Source: Gammaproteobacteria bacterium
Lineage (GTDB): Bacteria; Pseudomonadota; Gammaproteobacteria; UBA4575
Direction: 5' to 3'
Assembly (NCBI GenBank): GCA_026706595.1
Contig: JAPOYL010000009.1
Coordinates: 22,687-86,686, forward strand
Length of the DNA: 64,000 nucleotides
The notes below the pieces were generated by a model that worked only from the letters and a program-made list of their open reading frames with translations, did no database searches and was not told where the DNA came from. Numbering within the stretch: position 1 is the first letter of the stretch; each line of letters begins with the position of its first letter. The translations under genes and the position numbers were made by a program. Positions 18,219-53,417 of this stretch are shown in pieces.

Positions 18219-18320
18219 TAAAAAGAAGTATAGGGTTTTAGTCTGTGTTAGTAAATTGGCTAATTGATTGGCATCGCATGATTATCTATGCTTGTCTATA
18301 GTTTCCTACTAGGACATAAA

Positions 18321-18773: not shown

Positions 18774-18965
18774 TCAATCCTCTTTCAGATAATCCCAGTC
18801 TTTCTTCGGAGACCCCTTCATAATTGCCTTGGCAATGTTCTCCGGGCTGTCTGGCACTTTAGGAGGCATTTTCTTGGTCACAGGCCGACCCCGCTTGTGA
18901 GCCTTTACCTTCAATGTCTTTTTGCCTTTAACCTGCTTCATCTCTATACTTTCCTCTAACGACAT
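18774..18965 (-). CDS. AT-hook micro-protein (63 aa), paralog 2
   Basis: '...KAHKRGRPVTKKMPPKVPDSPENIAKAIMKG...'. It is Lys-rich. Confidence 0.55.
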   Translation of the reverse strand: MSLEESIEMKQVKGKKTLKVKAHKRGRPVTKKMPPKVPDSPENIAKAIMKGSPKKDWDYLKED

Positions 18966-19124
18966 TCATGTAGATACCCTGGTCGGGTTATCTGCTTAAT
19001 ACAATAGCCATTTACGCATCAGGGTAGCTCCCTGATGTTTGGTAAAGAGGCGGAACCTCTCCGTACTTCTACGTGGATGTCGTATGACCCGGCACCATGC
19101 ACGTAACAAAAAGGAGAGGTGGTC

Positions 19125-19424
19125 ATGCGTTCTTTCAATATTCTCGTCATTTCAATTCTCATAAGCGGGTGTGCTACTAGCAATTATTTCGTTGCCACTG
19201 GCAGTCGCGCGGATGGAACGGTTGAGGTGGCCTGCAACTACGACATGTTTAATATTTGCAAACACGATGGGAGTCCCAATGGATCCAGCGCAGCCGGTCA
19301 AGCTTGCCGAAGTTGGGGATATGACGGTGCCCGCTCTTTTGGAGGTTATACCAACCAACCTAGATATGACGGTACAGGCCAGGTAAGAATCCTGTACCAG
19401 TGTTATGGTGATCCTGAGAAGTAA
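19125..19424 (+). CDS. Small lipoprotein (Cys-rich, about 100 aa)
   Basis: Signal peptide plus lipobox 'LISGC', with an AAGGAGAG RBS 8 nt upstream of the ATG. Confidence 0.6.
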   Translation: MRSFNILVISILISGCATSNYFVATGSRADGTVEVACNYDMFNICKHDGSPNGSSAAGQACRSWGYDGARSFGGYTNQPRYDGTGQVRILYQCYGDPEK

Positions 19425-19434
19425 GGGGAGAAAC

Positions 19435-19608
19435 ATGGAATACATCATCCCTTACCTTTTTGCCTTTGGCCTTTGTGGTTTGCTGGCTTTTGCAATACAG
19501 GGAGAAAATTCTGAAGGGAAAGGATTAGCCTTTGCCTTGGGATTTCTGTTTGGACCTTTAGGAATTCTCATTGTGTTGATCACGAAACTAGCAAAGACAA
19601 AGAAATAA
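19435..19608 (+). CDS. Two-helix mini membrane protein (57 aa)
   Basis: 'MEYIIPYLFAFGLCGLLAFAIQG...GFLFGPLGILIVLITKLAKTKK'. An AGGGGAG RBS follows immediately after the lipoprotein stop. Confidence 0.5.
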   Translation: MEYIIPYLFAFGLCGLLAFAIQGENSEGKGLAFALGFLFGPLGILIVLITKLAKTKK

Positions 19609-19657
19609 AAACTCATGCCACTCTGATAACATAGCCAAAATTAATTAGGAAATCTTG

Positions 19658-19987
19658 ATGACAGAAAATCCCTCAAAACCCCAATCAGTTCGAGCTCAAA
19701 AGCATGCTGCTTCTCCAGAACATTCTGAAAGTCGACTTCGACATGTGAAGGGATTTGATTTGTATCAGGCAGACAATACAGAGTCCTATGTCCTAGATTT
19801 TCACTTTCATACTTTACAGAATTATCCTGCAGACGAAATGACAACCCTTGTGGGAGATCATTTTCCTCAAATTTTGGAAAGGAAGGATCTTCAGAAGCTT
19901 GCCTATAAAATTCTAAAGACATTGCGAGAAGAGCTTCAAGCTCCTGTCGAGAAGTGGAACGATGATATTGATTCCTTGAAGATTTAA
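19658..19987 (+). CDS. Hypothetical protein (about 109 aa). A fully overlapping 133-aa antisense ORF (19641..20042) is an alternative.
   Basis: An AGGAAA RBS lies 7 nt upstream of the ATG. The call is ambiguous between strands. Confidence 0.35.
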   Translation: MTENPSKPQSVRAQKHAASPEHSESRLRHVKGFDLYQADNTESYVLDFHFHTLQNYPADEMTTLVGDHFPQILERKDLQKLAYKILKTLREELQAPVEKWNDDIDSLKI

Positions 19988-20022
19988 AGGATTCAAAATT
20001 AATAATATTGTTGTTATTCACC

Positions 20023-20958
20023 CTAAGACACCAATTCCTCATACTTCAACCGCTTGCCTTCCATGCGCTTGGCAACAAACGCCATCTGGCGGATTGTATC
20101 CAGCTCCCTGATATTGAAGCGTCCTGCGAACTCCTGCACATAGCGATTCAGGTGCTTTTTGCTGATGTGATGATACGTGCCGTGGTACCCACGCTTGAGT
20201 AGTGCCCAGAAGGACTCGATGCCGTTGGTGTGGGCCATGCCCCTCACAAACTCACTGGTAGAATGTCGGACGGCCCTGTGGTCATAGCGTTTGTATAGTT
20301 GCATGTAAGCCCGATTATCGTCTGTGATCAGTGTGGCCTCTGGGTCCATGTTCTCGGCAATAAACTTGTGCAGCGTGTACGCCGTGGTGTCTTCGGCAGT
20401 CTTGGCCCGAATCTCTTTACTGTCTCTGCACTTCATACCGACCACAATTGCCTTGTCCGTAGCTCCTCGTCCCTTGAGAGTCTTGCGCTTGGCATTGTGC
20501 ATGTTCTTTCGCTTTCCACCCATGTAGGTCTCATCCACTTCCACAGTGCCTCGCAGAAGCCCATCGCCTTCATCAAAGGCCTCCCGAATGCGTTGTAGCA
20601 TGTACCAGGCTGACTTCTGGGTTATTCCGAGTTCCCGACTCAGCTTCATGCTGGAAATGCCCTTGAGATTAGTGGTCGCCATGTAGATCGCGATCACCCA
20701 GTGTTGGAGCTTGATCTTGGAACCTTCCATGACCGACCCTTTTTTGACGCTGAAGAATTGCCGGCAATCACGGCAGCGATAACGCATGGTCTTGTGGGTC
20801 GTATGGGTGTGGTTGACAGACCCGCAATCAGGACAGACCGGACCATCAGGCCAACGCTGCTCCTCAAGCCATTGCTCAGCAGTCCTGTCATCAGGGAACA
20901 TCTGAAGCAGCTCAATGATTGTAATCCCTTTCCGGTGTGACTTGCCTGGACCTGCCAT
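20023..20958 (-). CDS. IS1595-family (ISXO2-like) DDE transposase
   Basis: An N-terminal zinc ribbon 'PDGPVCPDCGS...YRCRDCRQFFSV', then 'KGISSMKLSRELGITQKSAWYMLQRIR' and a DDE domain (311 aa). Confidence 0.85.
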   Translation of the reverse strand: MAGPGKSHRKGITIIELLQMFPDDRTAEQWLEEQRWPDGPVCPDCGSVNHTHTTHKTMRYRCRDCRQFFSVKKGSVMEGSKIKLQHWVIAIYMATTNLKGISSMKLSRELGITQKSAWYMLQRIREAFDEGDGLLRGTVEVDETYMGGKRKNMHNAKRKTLKGRGATDKAIVVGMKCRDSKEIRAKTAEDTTAYTLHKFIAENMDPEATLITDDNRAYMQLYKRYDHRAVRHSTSEFVRGMAHTNGIESFWALLKRGYHGTYHHISKKHLNRYVQEFAGRFNIRELDTIRQMAFVAKRMEGKRLKYEELVS

Positions 20959-21086
20959 TCCTACATCTTGATCAGTTGATTATTCATGGTAACTATTCTA
21001 CCGGAAAACAGTGCGAAAGTAAAGGGTTTACCGATAGAAATATATATTACGATAGGTATATCCTATGTAGGCTGTTAGAAAAGACT

Positions 21087-38476: not shown

Positions 38477-38579
38477 TACGGAGTGTCACGGGTTTTGTGG
38501 GATGGGTATTGTAATCCCAGCCGGATGCCCGAAGCCAGATTTTGCGCAGTGTGGCGCAAGGCACCATGGGGTAATTGCC

Positions 38580-40709
38580 ATGAAGAAAATAGCGGTCCTT
38601 TTTATTGTCATCGCCCTGATCGCAGTCTTTTTCATTCTTGATTTGCACCACTACCTCGATTTCTCGTATATCAAATCCAAGCAACTCCAGTTTACCGACT
38701 ACTTTCACGCCTATCCTGTCAAGACGGCACTGATCTATTTCCTGATCTACCTGGTTGTAACCGGACTGTCCCTGCCGGGTGCGGCCGTACTCTCGCTGCT
38801 TGCCGGTGCGATCTTCGGGTTGCCGGTGGGCGCGGCTGTCGTGCTGCTTGCAGCCACTTGCGGGGCCACCATCGCATTCTGGCTGTCGCGCTACATTTTT
38901 CGTGATTTCGTGCAGAACCGATTCGGGGACAAGCTGGCGGCCGTGAATCGTGGCATTGAGAAGGATGGGGCGTTTTATCTGTTCACACTGCGACTGATCC
39001 CGATATTCCCGTTTTTCGTCATCAACCTCGTCATGGGTCTCACCCCCATGCGAACCTCCGTCTTTTTTGTCACCAGCCTGCTCGGCATGGTACCCGGATG
39101 CATCATTTACGTGAACGTCGGCACCCAGTTGGCCAGCCTGGAGTCCCTCGGCGGGATCCTGACGCCGGGCCTGCTGATCGCGTTGCTGCTGCTGGCGGTC
39201 TTCCCGTGGATCGCGAGAAAAGCCGTTGAGCTTCTTCGTGCGCGGCGGGTGTATGCCGGTTTCAGCCGGCCGAAAAAGTTTGACCGCAACCTGATCGTCA
39301 TCGGGGCGGGCTCGGGAGGTCTGGTCGCCGCGCTCATTGCCGCGACCGTCAAGGCCAGGGTCACGCTGGTCGAGAAAAACAAAATGGGGGGTGACTGCCT
39401 GAACACCGGCTGTGTACCTTCCAAGGCGCTCATACGTTCGGCAAAGTTTATCGCCCAGGCAAAACGGGCGCAGCAGTACGGCTGTGAGCCGGTACAGGTG
39501 GAATTTAATTTCAAGAAGATCATGCAGCGCGTACGGCGCGTCATCCAGACGGTGGAGCCTCATGATTCCGTGGAGCGCTATACGAAGCTGGGAGTCGAGT
39601 GCATACAGGGCGAGGCGGAACTGAAGGACCCGTGGACGGTTGCCGTGAACGGAACGACGCTGACGAGCAAGAGTATCGTCCTGGCGACCGGGGCCAGTCC
39701 CCTGGTTCCAGACCTGCCAGGCTTGGCGGAGGCGGGCTATCATACCTCGGACACCATCTGGGACATCGATGTCCTTCCCGAGCGCATGGTCATCCTGGGA
39801 GGGGGTCCGATCGGATGTGAGCTGGCGCAATGCTTTGCGCGGCTGGGCTCCAAAGTGACCCAGGTGCAGCGCAGATCCAGGATCCTGCCGCGTGAAGACC
39901 CGGAGATTGCGGCCATGGTCACGGAAAGTTTCCGGCGCGACGGCGTGCAGATACTGACCGAGCACGCCGCACAGGAGGTCGTGCAGGAACCGGACTCCAG
40001 AGTACTGATTTGCAGCCACGGGGGCGAGGAGGTCCGTATTCCGTTTGATACCATTCTGGTTGCAGTGGGGCGCAAGGTGACCTCCCACCATACCTGGGAC
40101 AAGCACCTGCAGATCGAGGTGCAGAAAAACGGGCAGCCTGAACTGAATGAATTTCTGCAAACCAGTTACCCGAACATCTATGCCTGTGGCGATCTCGCGG
40201 GCCCTTACCAATTCACGCACACGGCTTCCCACCAGGCCTGGTATGCCAGTGTCAATGCGCTGTTCGGGCGCTTCAGGAAATTCCGCGTGGACTACTCGGT
40301 CATCCCCTGGTGTACGTTCACAGAACCCGAAGTGGCAAGGGTCGGTCTGAATGAACAGGAGGCACAGTGCAGGGGGGTCGAACACGAAGTGGCATGCTAC
40401 GATATCTCCGATCTGGATCGCGCCATTGCCGATGAAGAGGCGCACGGGGTGGTCAAGGTACTGACGGTTCCCGGCAAGGACCGGATACTGGGGGTTACCA
40501 TTGTTGGTGAGCATGCCGGTGACCTGATCGCTGAGTATGTCTCGGCCATGAAGCACAAGCTGGGCCTGAACAAGATTCTCGGCACGATTCATATCTACCC
40601 GACGCTGGCCGAGGCGAACAAGTATGCTGCCGGTGCCTGGAAGAAGGCTCATGCCCCCGAGAAAGTGCTGAGTTGGGTAAAGAGGTATCATGCCTTTGAG
40701 CGCGGCTGA
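38580..40709 (+). CDS. Fusion protein: DedA/TVP38-TMEM64 membrane domain plus class-I pyridine-nucleotide-disulfide oxidoreductase (often mis-annotated as mercuric reductase)
   Basis: N-terminal multi-TM DedA region. FAD-binding 'VIGAGSGG'. Redox-active disulfide 'GGDCLNTGCVPSK'. NAD-binding 'ILGGGPIGCE'. Dimerisation His-Glu 'HIYPTLAE'. There is no C-terminal MerA Cys pair. Confidence 0.8.
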   Translation: MKKIAVLFIVIALIAVFFILDLHHYLDFSYIKSKQLQFTDYFHAYPVKTALIYFLIYLVVTGLSLPGAAVLSLLAGAIFGLPVGAAVVLLAATCGATIAFWLSRYIFRDFVQNRFGDKLAAVNRGIEKDGAFYLFTLRLIPIFPFFVINLVMGLTPMRTSVFFVTSLLGMVPGCIIYVNVGTQLASLESLGGILTPGLLIALLLLAVFPWIARKAVELLRARRVYAGFSRPKKFDRNLIVIGAGSGGLVAALIAATVKARVTLVEKNKMGGDCLNTGCVPSKALIRSAKFIAQAKRAQQYGCEPVQVEFNFKKIMQRVRRVIQTVEPHDSVERYTKLGVECIQGEAELKDPWTVAVNGTTLTSKSIVLATGASPLVPDLPGLAEAGYHTSDTIWDIDVLPERMVILGGGPIGCELAQCFARLGSKVTQVQRRSRILPREDPEIAAMVTESFRRDGVQILTEHAAQEVVQEPDSRVLICSHGGEEVRIPFDTILVAVGRKVTSHHTWDKHLQIEVQKNGQPELNEFLQTSYPNIYACGDLAGPYQFTHTASHQAWYASVNALFGRFRKFRVDYSVIPWCTFTEPEVARVGLNEQEAQCRGVEHEVACYDISDLDRAIADEEAHGVVKVLTVPGKDRILGVTIVGEHAGDLIAEYVSAMKHKLGLNKILGTIHIYPTLAEANKYAAGAWKKAHAPEKVLSWVKRYHAFERG

Positions 40710-40737
40710 TGCCGCCTGATTTGGGAGCACTCTGGAT

Positions 40738-41697
40738 ATGCATGAAACCCTGCATCTGCTGAAACAGTCCGACTTCCCCGAAATTCACCGGGCCCGGCTT
40801 GAGACCCTGCAGATCAACCTGGGCTACCGCTGCAACCAGACCTGTGTGCACTGCCATGTCAATGCCGGTCCGAACCGCAAGGAGATGATGTCTTCGGATA
40901 CGATCAACACCGTGCTGGGCTATCTGCAGGCACGTGATGTCCAGGTGCTGGATATCACCGGCGGGGCTCCGGAACTGCACCCGCAGTTCAGAAGCCTGGT
41001 CGAACAGGCCCGCGGACAGGTCGAGCGTGTGATCGATCGCTGCAACCTGACGATACTTGAGGAACCCGGGCAGGAATCACTTGCACAATTCCTGGCAGAG
41101 CAGCACGTCGAGATCGTGGCATCCCTGCCATGCTATCTTGAAGAAAATGTCGACCGCCAGCGCGGCAAGGGAGTGTTCCAGAAGAGCATACGGGCATTGC
41201 AACGGCTGAATGCGCTTGGCTACGGAACCGGTGATGCCCGCCTGAGTCTCACGCTGGTCTACAATCCACAGGGCCCGGATTTGCCACCGTCGCAGGAAGG
41301 CCTGGAGAGAGACTATCATGAATTCCTGCTCAAGTACGGGGTCAGGTTCGATCACCTGTTCACCATCACCAACATGCCGATCAAGCGGTTTGGCAGCATG
41401 CTGGTGAGCCAGGGAAAATTTGACGAATACATGCAGTTGCTGAGGGATTCCTATTGTGAAAAAAACCTGCAGGCGGTGATGTGCCGTTCCCTGATCAGCG
41501 TGGACTGGCGCGGCTACGTGTATGACTGTGACTTCAACCAGATGCTCGGCTTGCCGCTGCCGTATCACAACCAGGTGCGCACGCATTTGTCCGAGCTGAT
41601 GAGTGTCGATCTGGAGGGCAGCGAAATTGCCGTGGCGGACCACTGCTATGGCTGTACTGCTGGACAGGGGAGCAGTTGTGGCGGTTCGCTGAGCTAG
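40738..41697 (+). CDS. Radical SAM/Cys-rich-domain protein, ArsS-like (arsenosugar-biosynthesis radical SAM family)
   Basis: 'CNQTCVHCHVNAG' CxxxCxxC and a C-terminal Cys cluster 'CYGCTAGQGSSCGG'. Confidence 0.7.
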   Translation: MHETLHLLKQSDFPEIHRARLETLQINLGYRCNQTCVHCHVNAGPNRKEMMSSDTINTVLGYLQARDVQVLDITGGAPELHPQFRSLVEQARGQVERVIDRCNLTILEEPGQESLAQFLAEQHVEIVASLPCYLEENVDRQRGKGVFQKSIRALQRLNALGYGTGDARLSLTLVYNPQGPDLPPSQEGLERDYHEFLLKYGVRFDHLFTITNMPIKRFGSMLVSQGKFDEYMQLLRDSYCEKNLQAVMCRSLISVDWRGYVYDCDFNQMLGLPLPYHNQVRTHLSELMSVDLEGSEIAVADHCYGCTAGQGSSCGGSLS

Positions 41698-41738
41698 CGA
41701 CCGTAATGTACCTGCTGTAACCTGCCTCACACACGGAT

Positions 41739-42794
41739 ATGAGAATATTGCTTGTATACATTGCCTTGGCCCTCTATGCGGTAACGGGTCATGCACAGGA
41801 GATGATGGAACGGCCTCCTGTGTTTGTGGTCACTGAGCCGGCAGTGAAAAAAAGTGTCTCGCCCACCGTCCTGTACAGCGGCACAGTCATCAGTCGGGAC
41901 GATGCCTATCTGGCGGGGGAAGTCCCCGGACACCTGACGTGGGTTGCCGATGTCGGCAGTCGTTTTCAAAAGGGTGAGACGGTGGCAAAAATGGATGACG
42001 TCTTCATCAGCCAGCAACTGATCGAAGAGCAATCCATCATCCAGAGCGAAAAGGCAAAGTACGAGTACCACACTCGCCAGGTGGAACGGTTCAGCAAACT
42101 CCTGACGGACAACAACATTGCAATGAGCCAGATGGATGCGGCCCGCAGGGACCAGTCGGTAGCGCGCAGTAACATCCTCTCCGCAGAAGCCCGCCTTGTC
42201 CAGGCCGAAGAGCATTTGCGGCGTACACGAATCATCGCCCCGTTTGACGGTATTGTATCCGAACGACGCCTGCAGGCCGGTGAGTGGGCCGACAAGGGGG
42301 AGGCCATCGTGCGGCTGGTCAGCAGCGAGAACCTTGAGATTCAAACGCACATTCCATCCAGCGCACTACCCTTTGTGACGGTCGGCACGCCTTTGACTTA
42401 CAACCATGGAAAATTCAACGGCACGGGCCGGGTGCGTACCTTGGTGCCGATCGGTGGAGACCTGTCCCGGCTGTATGAGTTGCGTGTTTCCATCTCGGAT
42501 GCGTCCTTGAGTGCGGGCACTCTGCTGCGCGTCGCAATCCCGACTGCACACCCCAGGGAAGTGGTGCTGGTGTCGCGCGATGCCCTGGTGCTGCGCAGGG
42601 AGGGGGTGTATGTGTTTCGCGTGAATGATCAATCGGTGGCAGAGAGGATCGCTGTGCAAACCGGGATTGCCGACTCTGACAGCATCGAAGTGATTGGCGG
42701 AATCCGGGAAAGTGACCGGGTCATCACACGCGGCGGCGAGAACCTCCAGCCCGGGATGGTAGTCAAGGTGCGACCGCTACTGGCGGATCCATGA
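41739..42794 (+). CDS. RND efflux periplasmic adaptor (membrane-fusion protein)
   Basis: A signal peptide with coiled-coil and beta-barrel adaptor architecture. Translationally coupled to the downstream RND permease. Confidence 0.8.
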   Translation: MRILLVYIALALYAVTGHAQEMMERPPVFVVTEPAVKKSVSPTVLYSGTVISRDDAYLAGEVPGHLTWVADVGSRFQKGETVAKMDDVFISQQLIEEQSIIQSEKAKYEYHTRQVERFSKLLTDNNIAMSQMDAARRDQSVARSNILSAEARLVQAEEHLRRTRIIAPFDGIVSERRLQAGEWADKGEAIVRLVSSENLEIQTHIPSSALPFVTVGTPLTYNHGKFNGTGRVRTLVPIGGDLSRLYELRVSISDASLSAGTLLRVAIPTAHPREVVLVSRDALVLRREGVYVFRVNDQSVAERIAVQTGIADSDSIEVIGGIRESDRVITRGGENLQPGMVVKVRPLLADP

Positions 42795-45700
42795 ACCCGA
42801 TTAAACTTGCACTGGGCAATCCCACTGCAACCCTGGTCGGCTGCCTGTTGGTTATCCTGTTTGGGTCGGTGACCCTGACCCAACTTCCCATCCAGCTGAC
42901 TCCCGCTGTGGAGCAGCCCGAGATCGTGATCTCGACCAGTTGGCGGGCGGCAGCCCCGGAAGAGGTCGAGTCCGAGATCATCGAGCCCCAGGAAAAGCAG
43001 TTGCGCGGCCTTACGGGCATGACGGAACTGCTTTCAGAAGCAAGCACCGGCACGGGCAAGATCACGATTTCCTTTGAGGTGGAACACGACTTGAACCGGG
43101 CGCTGATCGATGTGATCAACCGGCTGAACCGTGTTCCCAGCTATCCCGAAGATGCAGACGAGCCCGTGCTCAGCACGGCCGGTGGCCGGGGACGGCCGAT
43201 CGCCTGGTTCATCATCCGGACTGAAGAAGGCAATCCCCGGCCCATAGAAACCTACCGGGATTTTGTTGAGGACGTCGTGCAGACACGCCTTGAGCGCATC
43301 AACGGAGTCGCGCTATCCGAGGTTCGTGGCGGGAATGAGCATGAAGTCAGGATTACCGTCGATCCCTACAAGGCGGCAGGACTGGGTATCGACCTGACCA
43401 AGGCCGCCGCCCTGGTCAACGGCAATGAGGACATCTCCGGTGGCACTGCAAGCGTCGGCAAACGGCGCTACACATTGCGTTATGCCGGTTCGCTGGACGT
43501 ACGACAACTCAATGAACTGATCCTGGAGTGGCGAGATGGCAGGGCCATCGTATTGCGGGATATCGCCCGGGTTGAACTGGCCACCGTCGACCGCAACAAC
43601 TTCGTGATTACCAAGGGCGGACAGTCGATCGCAGTCAATGCCTACAGGGAGTCAGGTGTCAACGTGTTGCAGACCATGAGCCGGATCCGGGAAGTGGTCC
43701 GGGAGATCGAGCAGGGGCCTCTTAAACGGGCAGGCCTGAACATAGAACAGGTCTACGACGAGACTCAATATATCAACAGCGCGATCGAGTTGTTGCGCAA
43801 CAGCCTGAGCCTGGGAGTACTGTTGGCAATTGCCATTTTATGGTGGTTTCTGAGAAGGCTGCGGCCAACGCTGGTAGTCACTTTAGCGATACCCCTGTGC
43901 CTGTTTATGGCCTTGGTGATGATGAACATGACAGGCCGCACCATTAATGTCGTTTCCCTGGCGGGGATGGCATTTGCGGTCGGCATGGTGATGGATGCCG
44001 CGATCATCGTACTGGAGAACATTGTCCGCATGCGCGAGCAGGGCATGCCCTCCAAAGAAGCCGCGATTACAGGTACCTGGCAGGTGTGGCCGGCCTTGTT
44101 TGCCTCTGCAGTGACGACAGTCGCCATTTTTCTGCCGATCATTTTTCTGAAGGATCAAAGTGGTCAGCTGTTCTCGGATCTGGCCATCGTGATTTCAGTG
44201 GCTACCGTGACATCATTGCTCGTTGCCAGCCTTGTGATTCCCGTGGCTGCCCATGAGTTTACGTCGCAATTGCAGCTTGCCGACAGACCGGAATCTTGGC
44301 TGGATCGATCCACTTCGATGATCATGAGCCTCACCGGCACGCCGAAGATGCGCTGGATATGGATCCTCGGCCTGATCGGGACAGCGGTCACGATTACCTA
44401 TCTGGCCTTCCCCAAGCTGAACTATTTGCCGGAAGGAAATCGTAACCTGGTGTTTGGCATCATAATCCCTCCTCCGGGTGTCAATATTGATCACGTAGAG
44501 AAGGAAATGGGGGAAGTGATTGCCCAACGCCTGCAGCCGTATCTCGACGGCACAAGGTCACCGCAAATCAAACATTACTTCTTTGTCGCCCGGCCCGGGG
44601 CAATGTTCTTGGGTGCGCGGGCACAAAATCCGCACAAGGATGAAATCGACGAGGTCATGAAGGTCGTGAAAGGCACGATCAGCGGTTTTCCAGACAGCTT
44701 TGCCATCGTGCAGAAGGCGTCCTTGTTCAGTGGTGTTGGCGGAAGAACCTCTGTTGATATCAACATCCAGGGAAATGACATCGAAAGCCTGCTGCATGCT
44801 GCCCGGATGGGCTTTTTCAAGATTCCCACGGTGTTTCCCGGAATACGGGCCAACCCGAAACCCGGACTGCAGCTGGCAGAGCCCGAGCTACAGATGGCGC
44901 CTAGGGAGAGCCGCCTGGTTGAGGTCGGCTGGGGACGCGGGACCATGGCCTTGCTGACACGCTTTTTGGGCCAGGGTCTGTTTGTCGGCGAATATTTCGA
45001 TGGCGATGAAAAACTGGATGTGGTCGCCAGAGTCCAGCCATGGGACACACCGGAAGAACTGGCCGCTATCCCGTTGTATACGCCCCAAGGCGGTGTTCTG
45101 CCTGTCAGCGAGCTGGTCGAGATCACGCGCACCGCGGGTCCGGACCTCATTCGCCGCCTCGACCGACGACGTACTGTGACCCTGGAATTGCGCCCACCGC
45201 CCGGGGTTCCCCTCGAAGTGGTACTCGACAAGATTCACCAGGAAATCATCCCGGTCATAGAACGGGAACTGCCAGAGGGTGGAGCGATTCGCCTGAGCGG
45301 GTCTGCCGACAATCTTAAAAAGGCAATCCAGGGCTTTTCAAGCAGCTTTGTGCTGGCCGTGATCATCCTTTACTTGCTGATCACCGCGCTGTTTCGATCT
45401 TTTGTCGACGGGGTTCTGGTCATTTTGGTCCTGCCGCTTGCTACTGTGGGCGGGGTCCTCATGTTGCAGCTGCTGAATCTTCCCGCAGACCTGTTGACCA
45501 TGCTTGGCTTCATTGTCTTGCTGGGCCTGGTCGTCAATAACGCGATCCTGCTGGTCCACCAGGCCCGTGCCGCAGAGCGTCGGGGCCTGTCGCGCCCCGA
45601 CGCGGTACGTGAATCCGTACGGGTGCGCCTGCGGCCCATCTTCATGAGCACGCTGACCAGCATTTTCGGGATGCTGCCCCTGCTAGTCATCCCGGGTTCG

Positions 45701-45850
45701 GGCTCTGAGCTTTACAAGGGATTCGCCGGGGTCATCGTTGGAGGAATGGCGGTGAGCACCGTGTTCACGCTGATCCTGCTGCCCAGCATCCTGCAGCTCG
45801 GCAAAGCCACATCTCCTGCCGGGCGTGATGCTGAAATCACACCGGCCTGA
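42791..45850 (+). CDS. RND efflux transporter permease (AcrB/HAE1-like)
   Basis: 1019 aa, 12 TM helices and two large periplasmic loops. Confidence 0.85.
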   Translation: MNPIKLALGNPTATLVGCLLVILFGSVTLTQLPIQLTPAVEQPEIVISTSWRAAAPEEVESEIIEPQEKQLRGLTGMTELLSEASTGTGKITISFEVEHDLNRALIDVINRLNRVPSYPEDADEPVLSTAGGRGRPIAWFIIRTEEGNPRPIETYRDFVEDVVQTRLERINGVALSEVRGGNEHEVRITVDPYKAAGLGIDLTKAAALVNGNEDISGGTASVGKRRYTLRYAGSLDVRQLNELILEWRDGRAIVLRDIARVELATVDRNNFVITKGGQSIAVNAYRESGVNVLQTMSRIREVVREIEQGPLKRAGLNIEQVYDETQYINSAIELLRNSLSLGVLLAIAILWWFLRRLRPTLVVTLAIPLCLFMALVMMNMTGRTINVVSLAGMAFAVGMVMDAAIIVLENIVRMREQGMPSKEAAITGTWQVWPALFASAVTTVAIFLPIIFLKDQSGQLFSDLAIVISVATVTSLLVASLVIPVAAHEFTSQLQLADRPESWLDRSTSMIMSLTGTPKMRWIWILGLIGTAVTITYLAFPKLNYLPEGNRNLVFGIIIPPPGVNIDHVEKEMGEVIAQRLQPYLDGTRSPQIKHYFFVARPGAMFLGARAQNPHKDEIDEVMKVVKGTISGFPDSFAIVQKASLFSGVGGRTSVDINIQGNDIESLLHAARMGFFKIPTVFPGIRANPKPGLQLAEPELQMAPRESRLVEVGWGRGTMALLTRFLGQGLFVGEYFDGDEKLDVVARVQPWDTPEELAAIPLYTPQGGVLPVSELVEITRTAGPDLIRRLDRRRTVTLELRPPPGVPLEVVLDKIHQEIIPVIERELPEGGAIRLSGSADNLKKAIQGFSSSFVLAVIILYLLITALFRSFVDGVLVILVLPLATVGGVLMLQLLNLPADLLTMLGFIVLLGLVVNNAILLVHQARAAERRGLSRPDAVRESVRVRLRPIFMSTLTSIFGMLPLLVIPGSGSELYKGFAGVIVGGMAVSTVFTLILLPSILQLGKATSPAGRDAEITPA

Positions 45851-45889: not shown

Positions 45890-46711
45890 TCAGTGCAGTT
45901 TCTTGCGTTGTTCCTTGATCATGTCATAGGCCTTGCGAATCTCTTGGGTTTTCTCTGTGGCGATATCGATCATCTCTTCGGGCAGGCCCTTGGAAATCAG
46001 CTTGTCAGGATGATGCTGGCTCATCAGCCTGCGGTAGGCCCTCTTGATGTCGGCCTCGGAGGCCTGCGGGTCAACGCCGAGGACCCTGTAGGCATTTTCG
46101 ATCTCCTCAGCGGATACGAAGGCGGAGCGGTTGCCGTACTGATCACGGTGCTGCTGGCCAAAGGTGATCGATTCCAGTTGCTCAAGCCACGCATGTGGAT
46201 ATCCCAGCACGCTGCATATGTGGCGCAGAACCTGCTCCTCGGCCGGGTCCTTGATACCGTCCGCATAAGCGGCTTGCAGCTGAATCTCGATGAACATCTG
46301 GATCAGCGTGGTTTTGCGATGGCACTCCCTTCGGAACTGCTCGAGAACCTCGTCGAGCATGAATCCGTCCTCCTTGCCCTGATTGAACAGGGCTACGGCA
46401 ATCTTGCGCTGCGATTTGTTCAACCGCATCTGCGAGATCACCTGCTCGGCCAGCTGTATTTCCTGCGGGGAAACCTGTCCATCCGCCTTGGCAATGTGGC
46501 CCATGACAGAAAAGGTTGCGGTAAAGAAGGCGGCTTGGGTCCGTTCCTGTGAACCTTGGTCGAAGCTGAACCCCTCCTGCCTGCCGCCAGAGGATTTGTC
46601 CAGCTGATGGCCAAGCATGGCACCGATCATTGCACCAAGCGGCCCGCCCAGTGCAAATCCCAGTCCACCGCCAGCCAGCTTTCCCCACCAACTCATGGGC
46701 GTGTCTGCCAC
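45890..46711 (-). CDS. djlA: Co-chaperone DjlA (TM plus TerB plus C-terminal J domain)
   Basis: A C-terminal J domain 'AYRVLGVDPQASEADIKRAYRRLMSQHHPDK'. Confidence 0.85.
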   Translation of the reverse strand: MADTPMSWWGKLAGGGLGFALGGPLGAMIGAMLGHQLDKSSGGRQEGFSFDQGSQERTQAAFFTATFSVMGHIAKADGQVSPQEIQLAEQVISQMRLNKSQRKIAVALFNQGKEDGFMLDEVLEQFRRECHRKTTLIQMFIEIQLQAAYADGIKDPAEEQVLRHICSVLGYPHAWLEQLESITFGQQHRDQYGNRSAFVSAEEIENAYRVLGVDPQASEADIKRAYRRLMSQHHPDKLISKGLPEEMIDIATEKTQEIRKAYDMIKEQRKKLH

Positions 46712-46762: not shown

Positions 46763-48067
46763 TTATTTCGCACAGGTTCTGAATCCGGCGAATACATCAT
46801 TGCGGTCAGGACCATAGTAGTTGCGCCATGTGTTGTGGATCATGCGACTGCGGGTTACCCAAGCACCACCCCGCAGCACTTTGGTCTGACCGAACAACGG
46901 TCGGGAATATTCCGTGTAGCAGTCCGGTGAGAAGCCTGGATAGGGCTGGAAAGTCGAGTCCGTCCACTCCCACACATTGCCAAGCATCTGACGGCAGCCC
47001 AGTGCGCTGTCACCTGCCGGATGCGCGTGGACGCCAGCTGGGCCGGAACCCCTAGCATCCAGATTGGCACAATCCGCACTGGCCTCATCTCCCCAGGGAA
47101 ACTGCCTCTTGCAGGGCATGCCTGCAGTCACATCCTCTGGATTGCAAGCAGCTGCAAATTCCCATTCCGCCTCGGTCGGCAAGCGCCGGTTTGCCCATCT
47201 GCAAAACGCTTGGGCTTCATACCAGCTGACATGAATCACGGGATGGGCCAGTGCCAGAGCATGCCACTGGTCAAACCGTCGGGTGTGCCAGGTGTGATCG
47301 GAATCCTTTCTCCAGTACACCGGACATTCAAGACCCCGTTCCTTGCGCCATTGCCAACCCGCATCGCACCAGTATTCCCGCGTTGTATAGCCGCCGGCCT
47401 CCACAAACTCGACATAGTCTTGGTTGCTTACCGCGCAGCGGGCAATACGAAAAGGGGCCAGCGTGATCCTGTGTGCCCATTTCTCATTGTCAAACGTGAA
47501 CTCGCCGTTTCTTTCCGCACCCAGAAGGAACGGTCCGCCTGCAACTTCGATATCTTCATTTTCAGGAACGCTGCCGCCGTCAGCAGGTGTTTGATGGCGC
47601 ATGTAGGCCGGTGCGGGGTAGGCGAGAGTCTGTCGTGTGTAGGTCAGTGCCTCGCCATGCATGTCTTCATGGAACAGGGCCAGCAGATAGAAGTATTTTG
47701 CAGAATCTTCCAGCCCGATTTCGTCCAGTTGGGAAACCTCTGCCGACAGTACCTCATCCATGTACTGGAGTGTGTCTTCCATACTGGGTAGCGGCAGATC
47801 CCACCGCGTTTCGTGCGGGATGGAGATGGAGTCAAACAGCCTGTCTGAATCCGGAAGAATTTCCGGTCGTTGGCCTAGGTGGCGCAGCACCCAGAGTTCG
47901 TGGAAATACGCGGTGTGGGCAATTTCCCAGCACAAGGGGTTGGTGGTGGAAAGCCTGGGGCCGAGGAGTTGCTGTGAGTCCAGCCCCTCGATCAGGGTCA
48001 GGGTCCTGGAGCGCGTATCCCGCAAGGCGGCTTCTAGGTTTTCTGCGGTAGCGTCTCTGTAGTGCAT
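46763..48067 (-). CDS. EgtB/SenA-like sulfoxide (selenoxide) synthase homolog (DinB_2 plus FGE-sulfatase domains)
   Basis: An N-terminal DinB-like four-helix region followed by an FGE-like C-terminal domain (about 434 aa). There is no egtD neighbour. Confidence 0.7.
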   Translation of the reverse strand: MHYRDATAENLEAALRDTRSRTLTLIEGLDSQQLLGPRLSTTNPLCWEIAHTAYFHELWVLRHLGQRPEILPDSDRLFDSISIPHETRWDLPLPSMEDTLQYMDEVLSAEVSQLDEIGLEDSAKYFYLLALFHEDMHGEALTYTRQTLAYPAPAYMRHQTPADGGSVPENEDIEVAGGPFLLGAERNGEFTFDNEKWAHRITLAPFRIARCAVSNQDYVEFVEAGGYTTREYWCDAGWQWRKERGLECPVYWRKDSDHTWHTRRFDQWHALALAHPVIHVSWYEAQAFCRWANRRLPTEAEWEFAAACNPEDVTAGMPCKRQFPWGDEASADCANLDARGSGPAGVHAHPAGDSALGCRQMLGNVWEWTDSTFQPYPGFSPDCYTEYSRPLFGQTKVLRGGAWVTRSRMIHNTWRNYYGPDRNDVFAGFRTCAK

Positions 48068-49478: not shown

Positions 49479-51761
49479 TCAGCGGGGCTGGTCAAGGTTG
49501 ATATGCACGGGTTCCAGCGTGTCGCTTTGGGGCAGCACCTGTCCCACGATACAGGCATGCCGGTAGCCCAGCTCGTGCAATTCCGCGATGCAGGCATCGG
49601 CATGCCTGCCAGGTAGGGTGGCGAGCAAGCCCCCGGAAGTTTGCGGGTCAAACAGCAACGGGTAGTGCGGATGCTGAGTAGCTGCTTCGGGATTTTTGAC
49701 TGCGCGGCGCAGGCGTACATTGGAAGGCTGCAGGGAACTGAATATTCCCATCTCGATAGTTTCGGCAGCGCCGTCGAGAACCGGCAGCATGTTCAAGTCA
49801 ATCGTGATGTCCAGCTGGGCCGCACGTACCATCTCCAGCAAGTGACCCAGCACGCCAAAGCCCGTGATGTCGGTGCACGCATGCACGTCATACTTGTACA
49901 GGCATTGCGCGGCCATGTGATTTGAAACGAGCATGCAATCTATGGCATCCACGATCCAGCGACCCCTGGCCTTGCCCCGCATCTCTGCTGCAAACAAGGT
50001 GCCCGTGCCAACCGGTTTGGTGACGATGATGACATCGTCAACCTGCATCCCCCCTTTGGCAAGCAGTCGTTCTTTTTCGATCAGCCCGGTAACACTGAGC
50101 CCAAAGGCAAGCTCGGCCCCCTCGCTGGAGTGTCCCCCGACCAGCGCCGCCTTGTGCTGATCCAGGACCCGCACCGCACCGTCCATGATTTGCAGAAGCT
50201 GCTGCTCAACCACGTTCTCTTTTCCGTACGGGATGGTTGCAATGGCCATGGCCGCCTGTGCCTCTGCACCCATCGCAAACACATCGCTGAGGCTGTGGTT
50301 AGCGGTGACCTGTCCAAATACAAACGGGTCATCGATAAACGCCCGGAAATAATCGACGGACTGAACCTGTACTTTGCCGGGGGGTACGGTCACGGCCGCG
50401 GCATCATCCGGTGCATCCAGTCCGAGCAGCACGTCCTCACGAAGGTGGGGCGACAGCTGGTTGATGACGCGGCTTAGGACATTGCTGCCAATTTTTGCGC
50501 CGCATCCGCCACAACGCATGGCAATTGCAGAGATTTCCTCGAGCGTATCGCGGCTTGCCAGTCTGCTGTCCACGAGGTCGTCATGCTTTTCTTGCATTTC
50601 AGGGAGACGGTTGTACTTGTGCATGAATCTCCGGTCGATCAGATCCTTGAGCTTCCAGACCCAGGCACCTTCAGTGGCTAACGCTCCACGGGAGGCCACT
50701 GCATACTTGTTGCCGGTACTGACCAGACTCAGGAAGCTGATTTGTGGCACATGTTCTTTCAGGCGTCTGTTTTCCAGTGCACGCCTCAGATTCTTGTACA
50801 GCGGCTTCCCCTGCCGAACCGCAAACACACCGGACTTGGGCCGCGGATAATCGGTCACCGCAGCGATGTCACCTGCTGCAAAAACGTCACTGTGGGACAC
50901 TGACTGCAGGGAACTGTTTACCTGGATGAACCCTCGCTCATCCACGGCAAGCCCGGATTCCCTATACCAGGTTGGCGCGGATGCATGGGTTGCCCAAATT
51001 GTCGCGTCCGCGTGCAAGGAATTACCGGAATCCAGCTGCAGGGTATGGGCGTTAGCTTCCATGACCATGCATGCCTTGTGTATCGTAATCTGACGCTCTG
51101 CCAGAATGCGCATGAAGCGGTGCTGTACGGAGGGGTTATGTGTAGGCAATACGGTGCCGTTGCTGCAGATGATGTGAAAACGGAGCTTGTCCACAGGCAG
51201 GTCTTGCTGGCGTAGTAACTTGTGCAGGTGATACTGCGTGGACAGGGCGACCTCGACACCGCCAGCACCTGCGCCCACCACGGCCATCTGGTAATCGCCC
51301 TTGCGTGTGAGCACTTCATCCATGATGGCGTCCCAGCCCCGTAGAAACCGGTGGATGGGCTTGACTCCCAGTGTGTGTTCTCTTGAGCCGGGAACCTCTG
51401 TGAAGGAAGGTGTTGATCCCGTGTTAATGGACAGTACATCGTAATGTACGGGCGGCCGGTCGCCGCACAGAACATACTTGTTTTCCAGGTCCAAAGAGTT
51501 GGCATTTACATGGAACAGGCGTGCTCCGGCAAACCGGGCCAAGGGCTGCAAATCGATATGGCTTTCGTCAAAACTGTAATGACCCGCGATGTAGCCCGGC
51601 AACATCCCGGAATAAGGGGTGTGTACATCGCGGCTGATCAGGGTGATCTGCAGGCCCGCAATGGGCTTCATGCCGAATCGTTTGAGCACGGCAACGTGGC
51701 TGTGGCCTCCCCCGATCAACACCAAGTCCTTGATCACCGTGCTGTTTTTCGGTTTCTGCAA
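49479..51761 (-). CDS. selD: Fusion protein: NDH-2-like FAD/NAD(P) oxidoreductase plus selenide,water dikinase SelD (SenC-like)
   Basis: N-terminal 'LVLIGGGHSHVAV' and 'VVGAGAGGVE' Rossmann motifs. C-terminal SelD with 'RCGGCGAKIG', 'VDYF', 'GGHSSEG' and an AIR-synthase-like C-terminal domain. Confidence 0.85.
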   Translation of the reverse strand: MQKPKNSTVIKDLVLIGGGHSHVAVLKRFGMKPIAGLQITLISRDVHTPYSGMLPGYIAGHYSFDESHIDLQPLARFAGARLFHVNANSLDLENKYVLCGDRPPVHYDVLSINTGSTPSFTEVPGSREHTLGVKPIHRFLRGWDAIMDEVLTRKGDYQMAVVGAGAGGVEVALSTQYHLHKLLRQQDLPVDKLRFHIICSNGTVLPTHNPSVQHRFMRILAERQITIHKACMVMEANAHTLQLDSGNSLHADATIWATHASAPTWYRESGLAVDERGFIQVNSSLQSVSHSDVFAAGDIAAVTDYPRPKSGVFAVRQGKPLYKNLRRALENRRLKEHVPQISFLSLVSTGNKYAVASRGALATEGAWVWKLKDLIDRRFMHKYNRLPEMQEKHDDLVDSRLASRDTLEEISAIAMRCGGCGAKIGSNVLSRVINQLSPHLREDVLLGLDAPDDAAAVTVPPGKVQVQSVDYFRAFIDDPFVFGQVTANHSLSDVFAMGAEAQAAMAIATIPYGKENVVEQQLLQIMDGAVRVLDQHKAALVGGHSSEGAELAFGLSVTGLIEKERLLAKGGMQVDDVIIVTKPVGTGTLFAAEMRGKARGRWIVDAIDCMLVSNHMAAQCLYKYDVHACTDITGFGVLGHLLEMVRAAQLDITIDLNMLPVLDGAAETIEMGIFSSLQPSNVRLRRAVKNPEAATQHPHYPLLFDPQTSGGLLATLPGRHADACIAELHELGYRHACIVGQVLPQSDTLEPVHINLDQPR

Positions 51762-51818: not shown

Positions 51819-53417
51819 TCATACCGTTACAGCCTTTTCGGGAAGTGTCTCCTGGAAGTAGTTCTCCAGAAATTCATCGAAAGACACCGTGTCGGAAGCT
51901 TCGATCTCGAGCTGTTTCTCCACGGACTGCTGTACAGCATCGGTGAAAAACTCCGTGTCTTGCGGACTCAAGGCATGCTTGCATACACGGGCTTGATGTA
52001 TTTTGGAATGACGGCTCGCCATTTCGAAGAATCCTTCCTCGGCGGTGCGCATCTCATGCAGGATTCTTGCAGAAGGTGTCAATGCGGCCTCTTTCATGGC
52101 TGCAGCTTGCTGTCGTAATGCTGCACTGTAGTCATCACAGGAGTTTGCCTCATCCAGTATTTCACAGATGGCCTGCATTTCATGCAGGATTTCCTGTCCC
52201 CACTCCTGCAGTGAAACCTGCTTTTGGCCTTGCGTTAATTTGAGTGCCGGGTCACGCCCATAGTGCGCTGTGTTGATTTCATTGCTGTCAATTGCCTGCC
52301 GTTCCGCTGCATCGATGCGCGGGCTTTCCTGCAATAGGCAAAAAATCATAAAGGCTTCCAGAAAATGAAGCTGATCACAATTGATGCCCAGCGGTTCGAA
52401 TATGTCCAGGTCCAAGGAGCGTAACTCAACGTACTGGACACCACGCTGGCGAAGGGCATGGACCGGCTTTTCATTGTTCAAAGAGGGCTGCTTTGGTCGC
52501 ACAGTACTGTAGTACTCATTCTCAATTTGCAAAAAATTGGTGTTGAGCTGCCGGTATTCTCCCGTCATCTTGACACCAATCCTTTCATATTTCGGACATG
52601 ATGTTTCAATCGCCTGAGTCAGGCACTGGATATACGAATCCAGGCTGTCGTAGCAGGCCTTGATTCCAATCTCACTTTCCAGTTTGTTGTTGTACCCGAT
52701 ATCTCCCATGCGCAATGATGTCGCATGAGGGAGATAGTATGTAGTGGCATCAAACTGCTGCAGTACGCCGGGTTGTCCGTCTACAAAGGATTTGCAGATT
52801 GCGGGTGATGCACCAAACAGGTAGTAGATTAACCAGCCGTAACGTTGCAGATTCCGGGTCAAAGCAAAATACCGGTCGTCGATGAAATCCCGCTGCGGAG
52901 CATTGCGGGGGAAAAGGTCGCTGTAATACGGCCAGAATGGGCCTGGCAGCGAATAATTGAAATGGATGCCTGCAATTACCTGCATCATCTTGCCATAACG
53001 ATGGCCGAGACCACGGCGATACACGGTCTTCATCATGCCCAGATTCGACGGGCCGTAATTTGCAATCGGAATGCTCGCCTCGCCGTCGATTACGCACGGC
53101 ATGCTTGCACCCCACAAAGACTCGTGCCCGAGCTGGCCATAGACAAACTGATGAATTTTCTCCAAAAATCCCAGGGTCGTGGCAATTCCCTGTAGGGGTG
53201 GGGTGATCAGTTCCAGCAGGGCTTCCGAGTAGTCGGTCGTGATATAGGGGTTGGTGAGCGCGGAGCCCAGCGAAGACGGATGTGGTTGTTGGGAAATTTT
53301 CCCGTCACTGTCCACGCGTAACGATTCCTTTTCCAGGCCGATTTTGCCACCAGACAACAAATGTTGTTGCCTGTCCTGAGTGATCCTTCTGAGGTGGCTG
53401 TGTAGCTGGTCGTACAT
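51819..53417 (-). CDS. gshA: Glutamate-cysteine ligase (E. coli type)
   Basis: 'GLEKESLRVDSDGKISQQPHPSSLGSALTNPYITTDYSEALLELITP'. Confidence 0.88.
   Translation of the reverse strand: MYDQLHSHLRRITQDRQQHLLSGGKIGLEKESLRVDSDGKISQQPHPSSLGSALTNPYITTDYSEALLELITPPLQGIATTLGFLEKIHQFVYGQLGHESLWGASMPCVIDGEASIPIANYGPSNLGMMKTVYRRGLGHRYGKMMQVIAGIHFNYSLPGPFWPYYSDLFPRNAPQRDFIDDRYFALTRNLQRYGWLIYYLFGASPAICKSFVDGQPGVLQQFDATTYYLPHATSLRMGDIGYNNKLESEIGIKACYDSLDSYIQCLTQAIETSCPKYERIGVKMTGEYRQLNTNFLQIENEYYSTVRPKQPSLNNEKPVHALRQRGVQYVELRSLDLDIFEPLGINCDQLHFLEAFMIFCLLQESPRIDAAERQAIDSNEINTAHYGRDPALKLTQGQKQVSLQEWGQEILHEMQAICEILDEANSCDDYSAALRQQAAAMKEAALTPSARILHEMRTAEEGFFEMASRHSKIHQARVCKHALSPQDTEFFTDAVQQSVEKQLEIEASDTVSFDEFLENYFQETLPEKAVTV

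Follow-up and report, generated by a model that had tools for sequence, protein, structure and literature searches.

A stretch of 64,000 nucleotides from a gammaproteobacterial contig (JAPOYL010000009.1; hereafter, the window) encodes a DedA membrane domain fused to a class-I flavoprotein disulfide reductase, directly followed by a radical SAM enzyme of the ArsS family. We find that the pairing of this fusion with ArsS is real and conserved across Gamma- and Betaproteobacteria and Desulfobacterota, and that it points to an uncharacterized pathway handling arsenic- or selenium-like elements. Our preferred reading, which we hold tentatively, is that the fusion may be a membrane-tethered, MerA-like reductase supplying a reduced metalloid to ArsS, in a logic resembling that of the mer system and followed, in this lineage, by export through an RND pump.

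To evaluate the pairing, we used 80 loci from other species that carry a full-length fusion (56–68% identity), drawn from Gamma- and Betaproteobacteria, Desulfuromonadales and Desulfobacterales; overall, fusion homologues amount to at least 120 full-length clusters above 60% identity. Neighbors were counted by tblastn together with a GC3-based choice of open reading frames (ORFs), since greedy longest-ORF selection loses real genes to antisense ORFs where the GC content is high. In 25 of the 80 loci, an ArsS gene was found no more than 10 kb from the fusion; 24 of these copies share its strand, 13 adjoin it directly, and the non-adjacent copies are mostly separated from it by one to three genes of the cluster. 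With random placement in a genome of ~3 Mb, fewer than one of the 80 fusion loci would be expected near ArsS. Likewise, when the 120 closest fusion clusters are set against the 120 closest ArsS clusters, 36 of the former have their longest contig in common with one of the latter, and 13 of these 36 shared contigs are shorter than 15 kb. A reverse test with 80 ArsS-centered metagenome loci recovered a DedA-containing fusion in ~26 and only a stand-alone reductase in two more; among ArsS loci of at least 8 kb, the fusion is found beside ArsS in 16 of 39. Split forms adjoin ArsS as well, with the reductase alone directly upstream of ArsS in one locus (L160) and near it in another (L148), and DedA alone in L156 and L148. 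The co-occurrence check proposed by an earlier, first-pass annotation of this DNA therefore shows a gene pair that is conserved in other genomes. No ArsS is found nearby in the remaining 55 of 80 fusion loci, and ~60% of the ArsS loci with adequate flanks lack the fusion.

The fusion of DedA with a complete class-I oxidoreductase, as first annotated, is real. Its VTT/DedA domain (aa 69–182; 91.2 bits, cutoff 33.9) is joined by a short basic linker to the reductase, which matches Pyr_redox_2 (PF07992; aa 237–553, 219 bits), Pyr_redox (PF00070; aa 402–475) and Pyr_redox_dim (PF02852; aa 575–683, 98 bits), so that FAD and NAD(P) Rossmann domains and a dimerization domain are all present. Both dinucleotide-binding glycine motifs were found, and the CLNTGC motif aligns with the redox disulfide of MerA and lipoamide dehydrogenase. 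The start codon is identical in gene calls on two independent assemblies. By sequence, its nearest neighbors among solved structures are MerA 5x1y (260 bits), followed by lipoamide dehydrogenase 2eq6 and 1zk7, the core of Tn501 MerA. An AlphaFold model (pLDDT 79, pTM 0.68) places helices across aa 2–224, and Foldseek against the PDB returned target-normalized TM-scores of 0.83–0.89 to lipoamide dehydrogenase and MerA; this modeling confirmed the predicted reductase fold only. The basic character of both the N-terminus of the fusion and the linker is consistent with a reductase domain in the cytoplasm.

The active site distinguishes this reductase from ordinary disulfide reductases. In a residue-by-residue alignment, the site occupied by IHIYPTLAE in the fusion reads HPHPTLSE and HAHPTLGE in the lipoamide dehydrogenases 2eq6 and 1ebd, and FPYLTMVE and APYLTMAE in MerA 1zk7 and 5x1y, with the MerA tyrosine aligned to Y673 of the fusion. 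H671, Y673, P674, T675 and E678 are invariant in the alignments of fusion homologues. The His-Glu dimer interface described in the first-pass annotation is not intact, as the catalytic His is an invariant Tyr673 and only Glu678 is kept; since the acid-base His is replaced by Tyr, the reductase is more MerA-like than that annotation allowed. Loss of this His in the enzyme class fits a substrate that binds the thiolates directly, such as a metal, a metalloid or a small electrophile, and not an organic disulfide. Judged from the alignment, the His-to-Tyr change suggests a substrate other than an ordinary disulfide. We also considered a second MerA tyrosine (Tn501 Y194) as a conserved position; it lies close to the invariant EPHDSVERYT motif of the family, though in a different alignment column, and the claim was dropped.

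Family models leave the fusion outside every equivalog. None of the NCBIfam cutoffs was reached, be it for MerA (TIGR02053, 376.5 vs 454.45 bits), NF010311 (276 vs 600), lipoamide dehydrogenase (387 vs 409) or glutathione reductase (299 vs 480), and the matches to RclA and to the HOSCN reductase 'MerA' were likewise sub-threshold. The protein ends in ...WVKRYHAFERG, which bears out the reported absence of the C-terminal Cys pair of MerA, and no tail Cys is conserved in 62–74 homologues. The N-terminal heavy-metal-associated (NmerA) domain is absent, the N-terminus being the DedA domain. The earlier verdict that 'mercuric reductase' is a wrong label is thus right with regard to the family score, the Cys pair and NmerA, but goes too far in that the name reflects a real resemblance, seen in the MerA-type Tyr.

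Two further stretches of the reductase are of note. At the site of the MerA Cys pair, the tail of the fusion (aa 684–709, 40630–40709) has conserved W687, K688, H691, P693 and H704. This tail, like the segment aa 674–687, is of low confidence in the monomer AlphaFold model, and it could form part of the active site of the partner subunit. After the NAD(P)-binding glycine motif (aa 421–435, 39840–39885), the clade of the window reads VTQVQRRSR and most of the family VTxVEMxPR. Enzymes with Glu here usually prefer NADH, and those with basic residues NADPH; by this criterion, cofactor preference may differ between fusion clades.

The partner enzyme was correctly recognized as being of the ArsS type, with an equivalog-level match to TIGR04167 and a DUF3641 domain (PF12345, 183 bits). 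Its radical SAM CxxxCxxC motif (CNQTCVHC, aa 32–39) has C32, C36 and C39 invariant, C249, C264, C303, C306 and C314 are conserved, and the C-terminal Cys motif CYGCTAGQGSSCGG spans aa 303–316. For the characterized ArsS, the dimethylarsenic substrate has to be trivalent, and the reaction, which is redox-neutral, yields an As(V) nucleoside (PMC13598754); this implies that a reduction step would be needed before ArsS and not after it. The statement that some ArsS-family members are selenoproteins also finds support: in a Desulfobacterales metagenome-assembled genome (MAG), 0.8 kb downstream of the fusion, the ArsS gene reads ...CYTCTAGAGFT-TGA-GGAIDA-stop (L055:13720–13860), with the in-frame TGA in place of the Cys of the GSSCGG found in the other 101 homologues. 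This is the only such case in 107 ArsS genes, and the L055 enzyme is a probable selenocysteine form.

The fusion and ArsS belong to a wider gene set, which we delineated by clustering all ORFs of the 80 fusion loci and scanning the representatives. The most frequent partner is DUF547 (31 of 80), always adjacent to the fusion and carrying an invariant CAS.GCP pair and a signal-peptide-like N-terminus. It is followed by TIGR04282 (20/80), the GT2 enzyme TIGR04283 (18/80, and 42–44 of the 80 ArsS loci), DUF3047 (16/80), the TIGR03169 flavoprotein (stand-alone in 12/80, fused to SelD in four), a GDSL hydrolase of acylhydrolase type (9/80), an ArsM-like methyltransferase (8/80, and 9/80 ArsS loci) and a phosphoesterase-like protein (8/80, all eight with ArsS). 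The label 'phosphoesterase-like' comes from motifs read in the alignment, the protein having no Pfam or NCBIfam match, and the ArsM-typical Cys positions were recognized by eye in a representative sequence. In Betaproteobacteria, the array typically has the order ArsS, phosphoesterase-like protein, fusion, DUF547, TIGR04283, TIGR04282, DUF3047 and TIGR03169. Within the window, tblastn gave no match for ArsM, TIGR04282 or TIGR04283, and DUF547, DUF3047, the phosphoesterase-like protein and the other extra genes of the set were not found there; the lineage of the window keeps a minimal fusion-ArsS pair. In two Alcanivorax MAGs (L077:3011–7225 and L078:8707–12987), ArsM-like, fusion and DUF547 genes form triads with no ArsS within 10 kb, indicating that the fusion is not tied to ArsS alone.

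Taken together, the minimal pair, the tethered reductase of MerA-like appearance, and the ArsM-like and periplasmic Cys-pair partners found elsewhere lead us to favor a mer-like logic. The fusion would be a membrane-tethered, NAD(P)H-dependent reductase whose DedA domain in the inner membrane would admit or position an oxidized metalloid species for reduction by the flavoprotein domain at the cytoplasmic membrane face. The likeliest substrate would be a pentavalent methylated arsenical such as dimethylarsinate, the alternative being a selenium species. The reduced, labile product would be handed to ArsS, which, using a 5'-deoxyadenosyl radical from S-adenosylmethionine (SAM), would form the carbon-metalloid bond and yield a nucleoside of the 5'-deoxy-5'-dimethylarsinoyl-adenosine type. 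In the lineage of the window, the RND adaptor and pump may then export the product or an intermediate. Other lineages extend the pair with the two transferases, the phosphoesterase-like and ArsM-like proteins, periplasmic DUF547 and DUF3047, and the TIGR03169 flavoprotein. Substrate and transport direction are inferences in this scheme, as are the transfer to ArsS and the part played by the pump.

A number of observations weigh against this reading. Within 10 kb, 25 of the 80 fusion loci have no partner from the set (55 have at least one), and the 31 loci with DUF547 pair with that gene rather than with ArsS. Metal hand-over in MerA depends on a C-terminal Cys pair, which is absent from the fusion. 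No ArsM, ars regulator or arsenic resistance gene is found within the 64 kb, so that the suggested search for arsM or arsenite-responsive regulators came out empty in the window, with ArsM-like genes appearing in the related loci counted above. Many fusion loci contain a TonB receptor, a YnjBCD-type ATP-binding cassette (ABC) transporter or Pst/Phn-type importers, which would make a DedA importer redundant there. The PDB holds no ArsS structure. The SelD and sen links described below make selenium a conceivable alternative as the element. Finally, the supported activities of the DedA superfamily concern lipids, namely undecaprenyl-phosphate flipping and scrambling, and not oxyanion import (PMC10127716).

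The latter point underlies a different route, which we consider rather unlikely, in which DedA would be a scramblase or flippase for a lipid-linked product (an arsenosugar phospholipid, for instance, or a sugar on polyprenyl phosphate), in whose synthesis the TIGR04283 GT2 enzyme or a CDP-alcohol phosphatidyltransferase would be used; the reductase would act on or protect the head group, and ArsS would supply the head-group precursor only. Eukaryotic scramblases are placed with the COG0398 branch (PMC10127716), and the DedA domain of the window appears to be of this YdjX/YdjZ (TVP38, COG0398) type. Its sequence identity is 33% with E. coli YdjX (E = 3e-21) and 26% with YdjZ (E = 3e-14), and it scores 24.9 bits (cutoff 250) with the model of the undecaprenyl-phosphate transporter UptA, by which alone the flippase side was judged.

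Lipid chemistry is also suggested by the company that the fusion keeps on plasmids and chromids. A full-length fusion (52–58% identity) occurs on 91 PLSDB plasmids or chromids, including conjugative plasmids of Klebsiella, Salmonella, Citrobacter and Providencia, next to a TIGR03169-like flavoprotein (287 bits, cutoff 310) and/or DUF547. Other neighbors are a YnjB/C/D-like ABC importer, a CDP-alcohol phosphatidyltransferase together with a sterol-desaturase-family protein and, sometimes, TonB receptors, AhpD-like proteins and ECF sigma factors. The phosphatidyltransferase points to lipid chemistry, another argument against metalloid supply to ArsS, and it has a counterpart in E. coli K-12, where ydjX-ydjY-ydjZ-ynjA-ynjBCD-ynjE-ynjF (1833401–1841403; L170) ends in the CDP-alcohol phosphatidyltransferase gene ynjF. 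Recurrent TIGR04283 and GDSL acylhydrolase genes would fit as well. The lineage of the window argues to the contrary: it has the fusion and ArsS, with or without RND, and no transferase or phosphatidyltransferase within 10 kb. Moreover, the ArsS product is already As(V)-oxo, leaving no obvious substrate for a downstream reductase, and Tyr in place of the His speaks for a substrate that is small and inorganic or metal-like and not for a lipid head group.

Phosphonate- or phosphate-type ABC genes recur in or beside the clusters (L030:8137–9891, L048:6336–8059, L051:10709–13288 and L078:6156–7917). The PhnD-like and PhnE-like proteins of L030 are family matches, and the PstB-like label in L051 and L078 was assigned by eye only. 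These genes hint at oxyanion uptake or phosphate-stress control, and on the lipid route they would fit arsenolipid formation under phosphate stress. The plasmid and chromid loci comprise L168 (Klebsiella pneumoniae plasmid p_b78b_NDM5), L169, L171 and L172, with marine chromids included; the Klebsiella copy directly follows a DUF2282-DUF692-DUF2063-DoxX operon. Across all of these contexts, the fusion is a module used in several settings, with uptake systems, thiol/flavin redox proteins and group transfer to sugars or lipids as common themes.

Table 1. Positions of the genes, domains and motifs discussed, in window coordinates.
Feature	Position	Strand	Basis or remark
DedA-reductase fusion, 709 aa	38580..40709	+	translation, Pfam/NCBIfam, gene calls
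DedA domain, aa 1-230	38580..39269	+	PF09335; all-helical, without conserved Cys
Redox-active CLNTGC motif, Cys273 and Cys278	39396..39413	+	invariant in 62-74 homologues
IHIYPTLAE motif, aa 670-678	40587..40613	+	Tyr673 at catalytic-His position, Glu678 kept
ArsS-family radical SAM enzyme, 319 aa	40738..41697	+	TIGR04167 461.7 bits vs cutoff 300
RND periplasmic adaptor (membrane fusion protein), 351 aa	41739..42794	+	TIGR01730 179 bits vs cutoff 94.9
RND inner-membrane permease, 1019 aa	42791..45850	+	PF00873 (ACR_tran) 564 bits vs 28
DjlA	45890-46711	-	sits between RND pump and sen genes
SenA, selenoneine synthase	46763..48067	-	NF041186 509.8 bits vs cutoff 420
SenB, selenosugar synthase, 317 aa	48149..49102	+	TIGR04348 395.2 bits vs 300; gene-caller start
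SenC, TIGR03169 flavoprotein domain fused to SelD	49479..51761	-	TIGR03169 479 (cutoff 310); TIGR00476 290 (cutoff 125)
GshA, glutamate-cysteine ligase	51819-53417	-	adjoins SenC in window
Divergent intergenic region, 103 nt	38477..38579	.	between FAA-hydrolase gene (-) and fusion gene

All gene positions given in the first-pass annotation were borne out by translation, Pfam, NCBIfam and independent gene calls on the source scaffold (Table 1). From their layout, the four genes at 38580–45850 appear to form one operon with the fusion-ArsS pair as its conserved core: the spacers between fusion and ArsS, ArsS and adaptor, and adaptor and permease are 28, 41 and −4 nt (a 4-nt overlap), and a search for terminator-like hairpins between the four genes found none. 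This operon-like spacing is a direct observation, as are the domain architecture, the family memberships and the conserved gene association. The divergent intergenic region upstream of the fusion is the presumed promoter region; a consensus promoter scan gave five matches compared with 5.8 expected by chance, which neither supports nor contradicts the operon. Rfam had no match anywhere in the window, which leaves no lead toward a riboswitch, and a search with ARAGORN gave no tRNA.

The window is part of a 150-kb metagenome scaffold of a Sox-carrying bacterium, and the closest related records are gammaproteobacterial MAGs. At 17500–21000, the GC content drops to 0.41, compared with ~0.57 elsewhere, and only short ORFs are present. 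A 311-aa ORF flanking this stretch (20023–20958, minus strand) has, by eye, the look of a zinc-ribbon/DDE transposase. The low-GC stretch is probably a small insertion island.

The RND adaptor-permease pair follows ArsS as had been described, in the window and in its own clade (L002, L003, L164 and L166; relatives at 83%, 68%, 67% and 66% identity, GC 37–58%). It is missing from L165 (72% identity) and from all other fusion loci, and is a lineage-specific addition of this clade. As a general member of the cluster, the RND pair was rejected: the sole distant case (L096) is 23–24% identical and 5 kb off.

The selenoneine (sen) genes begin 0.9 kb beyond the permease, with DjlA intervening; their proximity had been put at ~1 kb, and all score above their family cutoffs. 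The longest ORF of SenB starts at 48062, compared with 48149 in the gene call. The proposal of a 15-kb metalloid neighborhood uniting the operon with the sen genes is only partly supported. Within the clade, the order FAA hydrolase, fusion, ArsS ... DjlA, SenA, SenB, SenC, GshA is kept while the intervening genes vary. Because unrelated upstream genes are syntenic too, the closeness of sen within the clade may be inherited backbone order. Independent sen/SelD linkage does exist, although it is rare, in ~6% of fusion loci (L050, L080, L022, L048 and L061). Selenoneine genes are most clearly joined to an ArsS cluster in a Pseudomonadota MAG (L050:4500–15300), whose array runs DedA alone, SenA (minus strand), SenB, ArsS, ArsM-like, fusion, DUF3047, TIGR04283, TIGR04282 and TIGR03169; true SenA (508 bits) and SenB (434 bits) immediately precede the part from ArsS to TIGR03169, with the stand-alone DedA beside senA, and no SelD domain was found in the locus. 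In L080, the fusion and DUF547 adjoin SenC and SenB, and a TIGR03169-SelD fusion follows the DedA-reductase fusion; such a protein follows it in L022, L048 and L061 as well, where SenA and SenB are absent. The link to selenium is genuine, if minor, and it is with the fusion rather than with ArsS.

These links invite a selenium reading, which we regard as unlikely, in which the fusion would take up or reduce selenite or selenotrisulfide to selenide for SelD-type enzymes such as SenC, ArsS would make a C-Se bond, and operon and sen genes would act as one selenium organification unit. Besides L050 and the SelD fusions, it can draw on the TIGR03169 flavoproteins, whose domain is fused to SelD in SenC and which recur in fusion loci and on plasmids, and on the weak match of the L030 PhnD-like protein to a 'putative selenate ABC' family. 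Kayrouz et al. described the sen cluster, and sen clusters often carry a putative selenate transporter. GshA next to SenC, in the window and also in the relative L165, counts in the same direction; glutathione could take part in the selenium handling of the sen pathway, or the placement of GshA may be synteny.

A DedA link to selenite uptake and resistance had been ascribed to E. coli; the work behind it is reportedly on another organism, Ralstonia metallidurans CH34. That work (Ledgham et al. 2005) is cited in PMC10127716, and the link counts for the selenium reading. Set against the selenium reading, none of the 80 ArsS-centered loci contains SenA, SenB or SelD genes, the proximity of sen coincides with the backbone synteny of the clade, with DjlA, OmpA and other unrelated genes in between, the only characterized ArsS acts on arsenic, and ArsM-like partners are commoner than SelD partners. 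In a broader variant, which we also think improbable, the fusion would be a general metalloid module that reduces at the membrane and hands over, serving ArsS and ArsM-like enzymes as well as SelD, SenC and TIGR03169, and ArsS may adenosylate selenium here. Were this so, the YdjX/YdjZ branch of DedA would gain its first assigned biochemical role, and a C-Se bond formed by ArsS would constitute a second organoselenium route beside the sen pathway.

A still less likely explanation makes the reductase the redox partner of ArsS itself, re-reducing its C-terminal Cys/Sec motif or feeding its iron-sulfur cluster, with DedA merely as an anchor. The tight same-strand adjacency and the stand-alone reductases directly upstream of ArsS (L160) or near it (L148) would agree with this, and the conserved CxxC...C(G/S)G tail with its TGA (Sec) in L055 recalls the redox tails of thioredoxin reductase. 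The ArsS reaction is, however, reported to be redox-neutral after priming, a protein disulfide would normally need the acid-base His that is Tyr here, and the two enzymes are too often found apart: most fusion loci have no ArsS, many of them having DUF547, ArsM-like or SelD-type partners, and most ArsS loci have no fusion. That the fusion is simply a general stress flavoprotein (RclA- or HOSCN-reductase-like), close to ArsS through shared regulation or inherited order, is very improbable: the loci without partners, the sub-threshold family matches and the varied contexts, including enterobacterial conjugative plasmids with the DoxX operon and ECF sigma factors, would allow it, but same-strand adjacency to ArsS recurs across several classes and phyla, and the association is kept while gene order varies and split variants still adjoin ArsS, for which hitch-hiking is a poor explanation.

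The architecture of the fusion and ArsS were both known before. Todor et al. (2023) found PF07992 and PF02852 to be the commonest fusion partners of COG0398 DedA proteins, related the fusion to aerobic metabolism only and left its function open, with no discussion of gene neighborhood, ArsS, arsenic or selenium. The PGAP family name is 'bifunctional TVP38/TMEM64 family protein/FAD-dependent oxidoreductase'. The conserved association of the fusion with ArsS-type clusters, TIGR03169 and SelD appears to be undescribed, as does its MerA-like His-to-Tyr signature. Our literature searches found no open-access paper linking TVP38, DedA or DUF547 with ArsS or arsenosugars, no description of the fusion, DUF547, DUF3047 or TIGR03169 as members of the arsenosugar set, no paper linking selenoneine with a radical SAM enzyme, and no functional paper on the E. 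coli ydjXYZ-ynj locus.

By way of the window and ~160 related loci, the commonest domain fusion of the YdjX/YdjZ (TVP38) branch is tied to ArsS, a biochemically defined enzyme of arsenic metabolism, and to ArsM-like methyltransferases, SelD-type selenium genes and TIGR03169 flavoproteins. The association offers a testable handle both on the function of this branch and on a missing step in the making of organoarsenic (or organoselenium) compounds. Should the fusion feed reduced metalloid to ArsS, the reduction that is missing ahead of arsenosugar formation would be accounted for, and a wider range of bacteria would be expected to make organoarsenicals or organoselenium, including sulfur oxidizers such as the source of the window. 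Fusion copies on conjugative enterobacterial plasmids add a possible resistance angle.

Compared with known systems, the fusion has the same architecture as that reported by Todor et al. (2023). The E. coli ydjXYZ-ynjABCDEF locus, which also has redox partners (YdjY and YnjA), is mirrored by the plasmid and chromid copies with their YnjBCD-like, YnjF-like and AhpD-like neighbors; unlike the fusion of the window, E. coli YdjX and YdjZ have no reductase fusion and no ArsS neighbor. The adaptor and permease resemble RND tripartite efflux systems in their overlapping genes and strong family matches. They differ from known RND subfamilies in that the permease stays below every NCBIfam equivalog cutoff, multidrug and heavy-metal subfamilies included, no outer-membrane factor gene is adjacent to the pair, and the coupling to ArsS is restricted to this clade. 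As for the selenoneine cluster, the window holds a complete, above-threshold set of SenA, SenB and SelD-type SenC; it is a separate known system with its own transcription units, linked to the fusion-ArsS operon by position only.

The ArsS of the cyanobacterial arsenosugar pathway ('radical SAM/Cys-rich domain protein') shares with the enzyme of the window the family score, the CxxxCxxC motif, DUF3641 and the C-terminal Cys motif, whereas the window has no ArsM or arsenic genes and its ArsS has the fusion and the RND pump as partners. Similarly, related loci combine ArsS and the fusion with TIGR04283 (270 bits, cutoff 182) and TIGR04282 (194 bits, cutoff 134), both from the 'arsenosugar biosynthesis' set of NCBI/TIGRFAMs (TIGR04167, TIGR04282 and TIGR04283), and neither transferase occurs within the 64 kb analyzed here.

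The preferred reading has a parallel in the mer system, in which MerP and MerT feed MerA. In contrast to mer, the fusion has no Cys pair and no NmerA domain, stays below the TIGR02053 cutoff, carries DedA instead of MerT, covalently fused, and has no mer genes among the gene calls of the window. What the two share is a class-I flavoprotein with a redox CxxxxC motif and a Tyr for the catalytic His, and the coupling of a membrane component to a cytoplasmic reductase. DUF547, with its periplasmic CAS.GCP Cys pair, is a frequent partner of the fusion, as MerP is for MerT.

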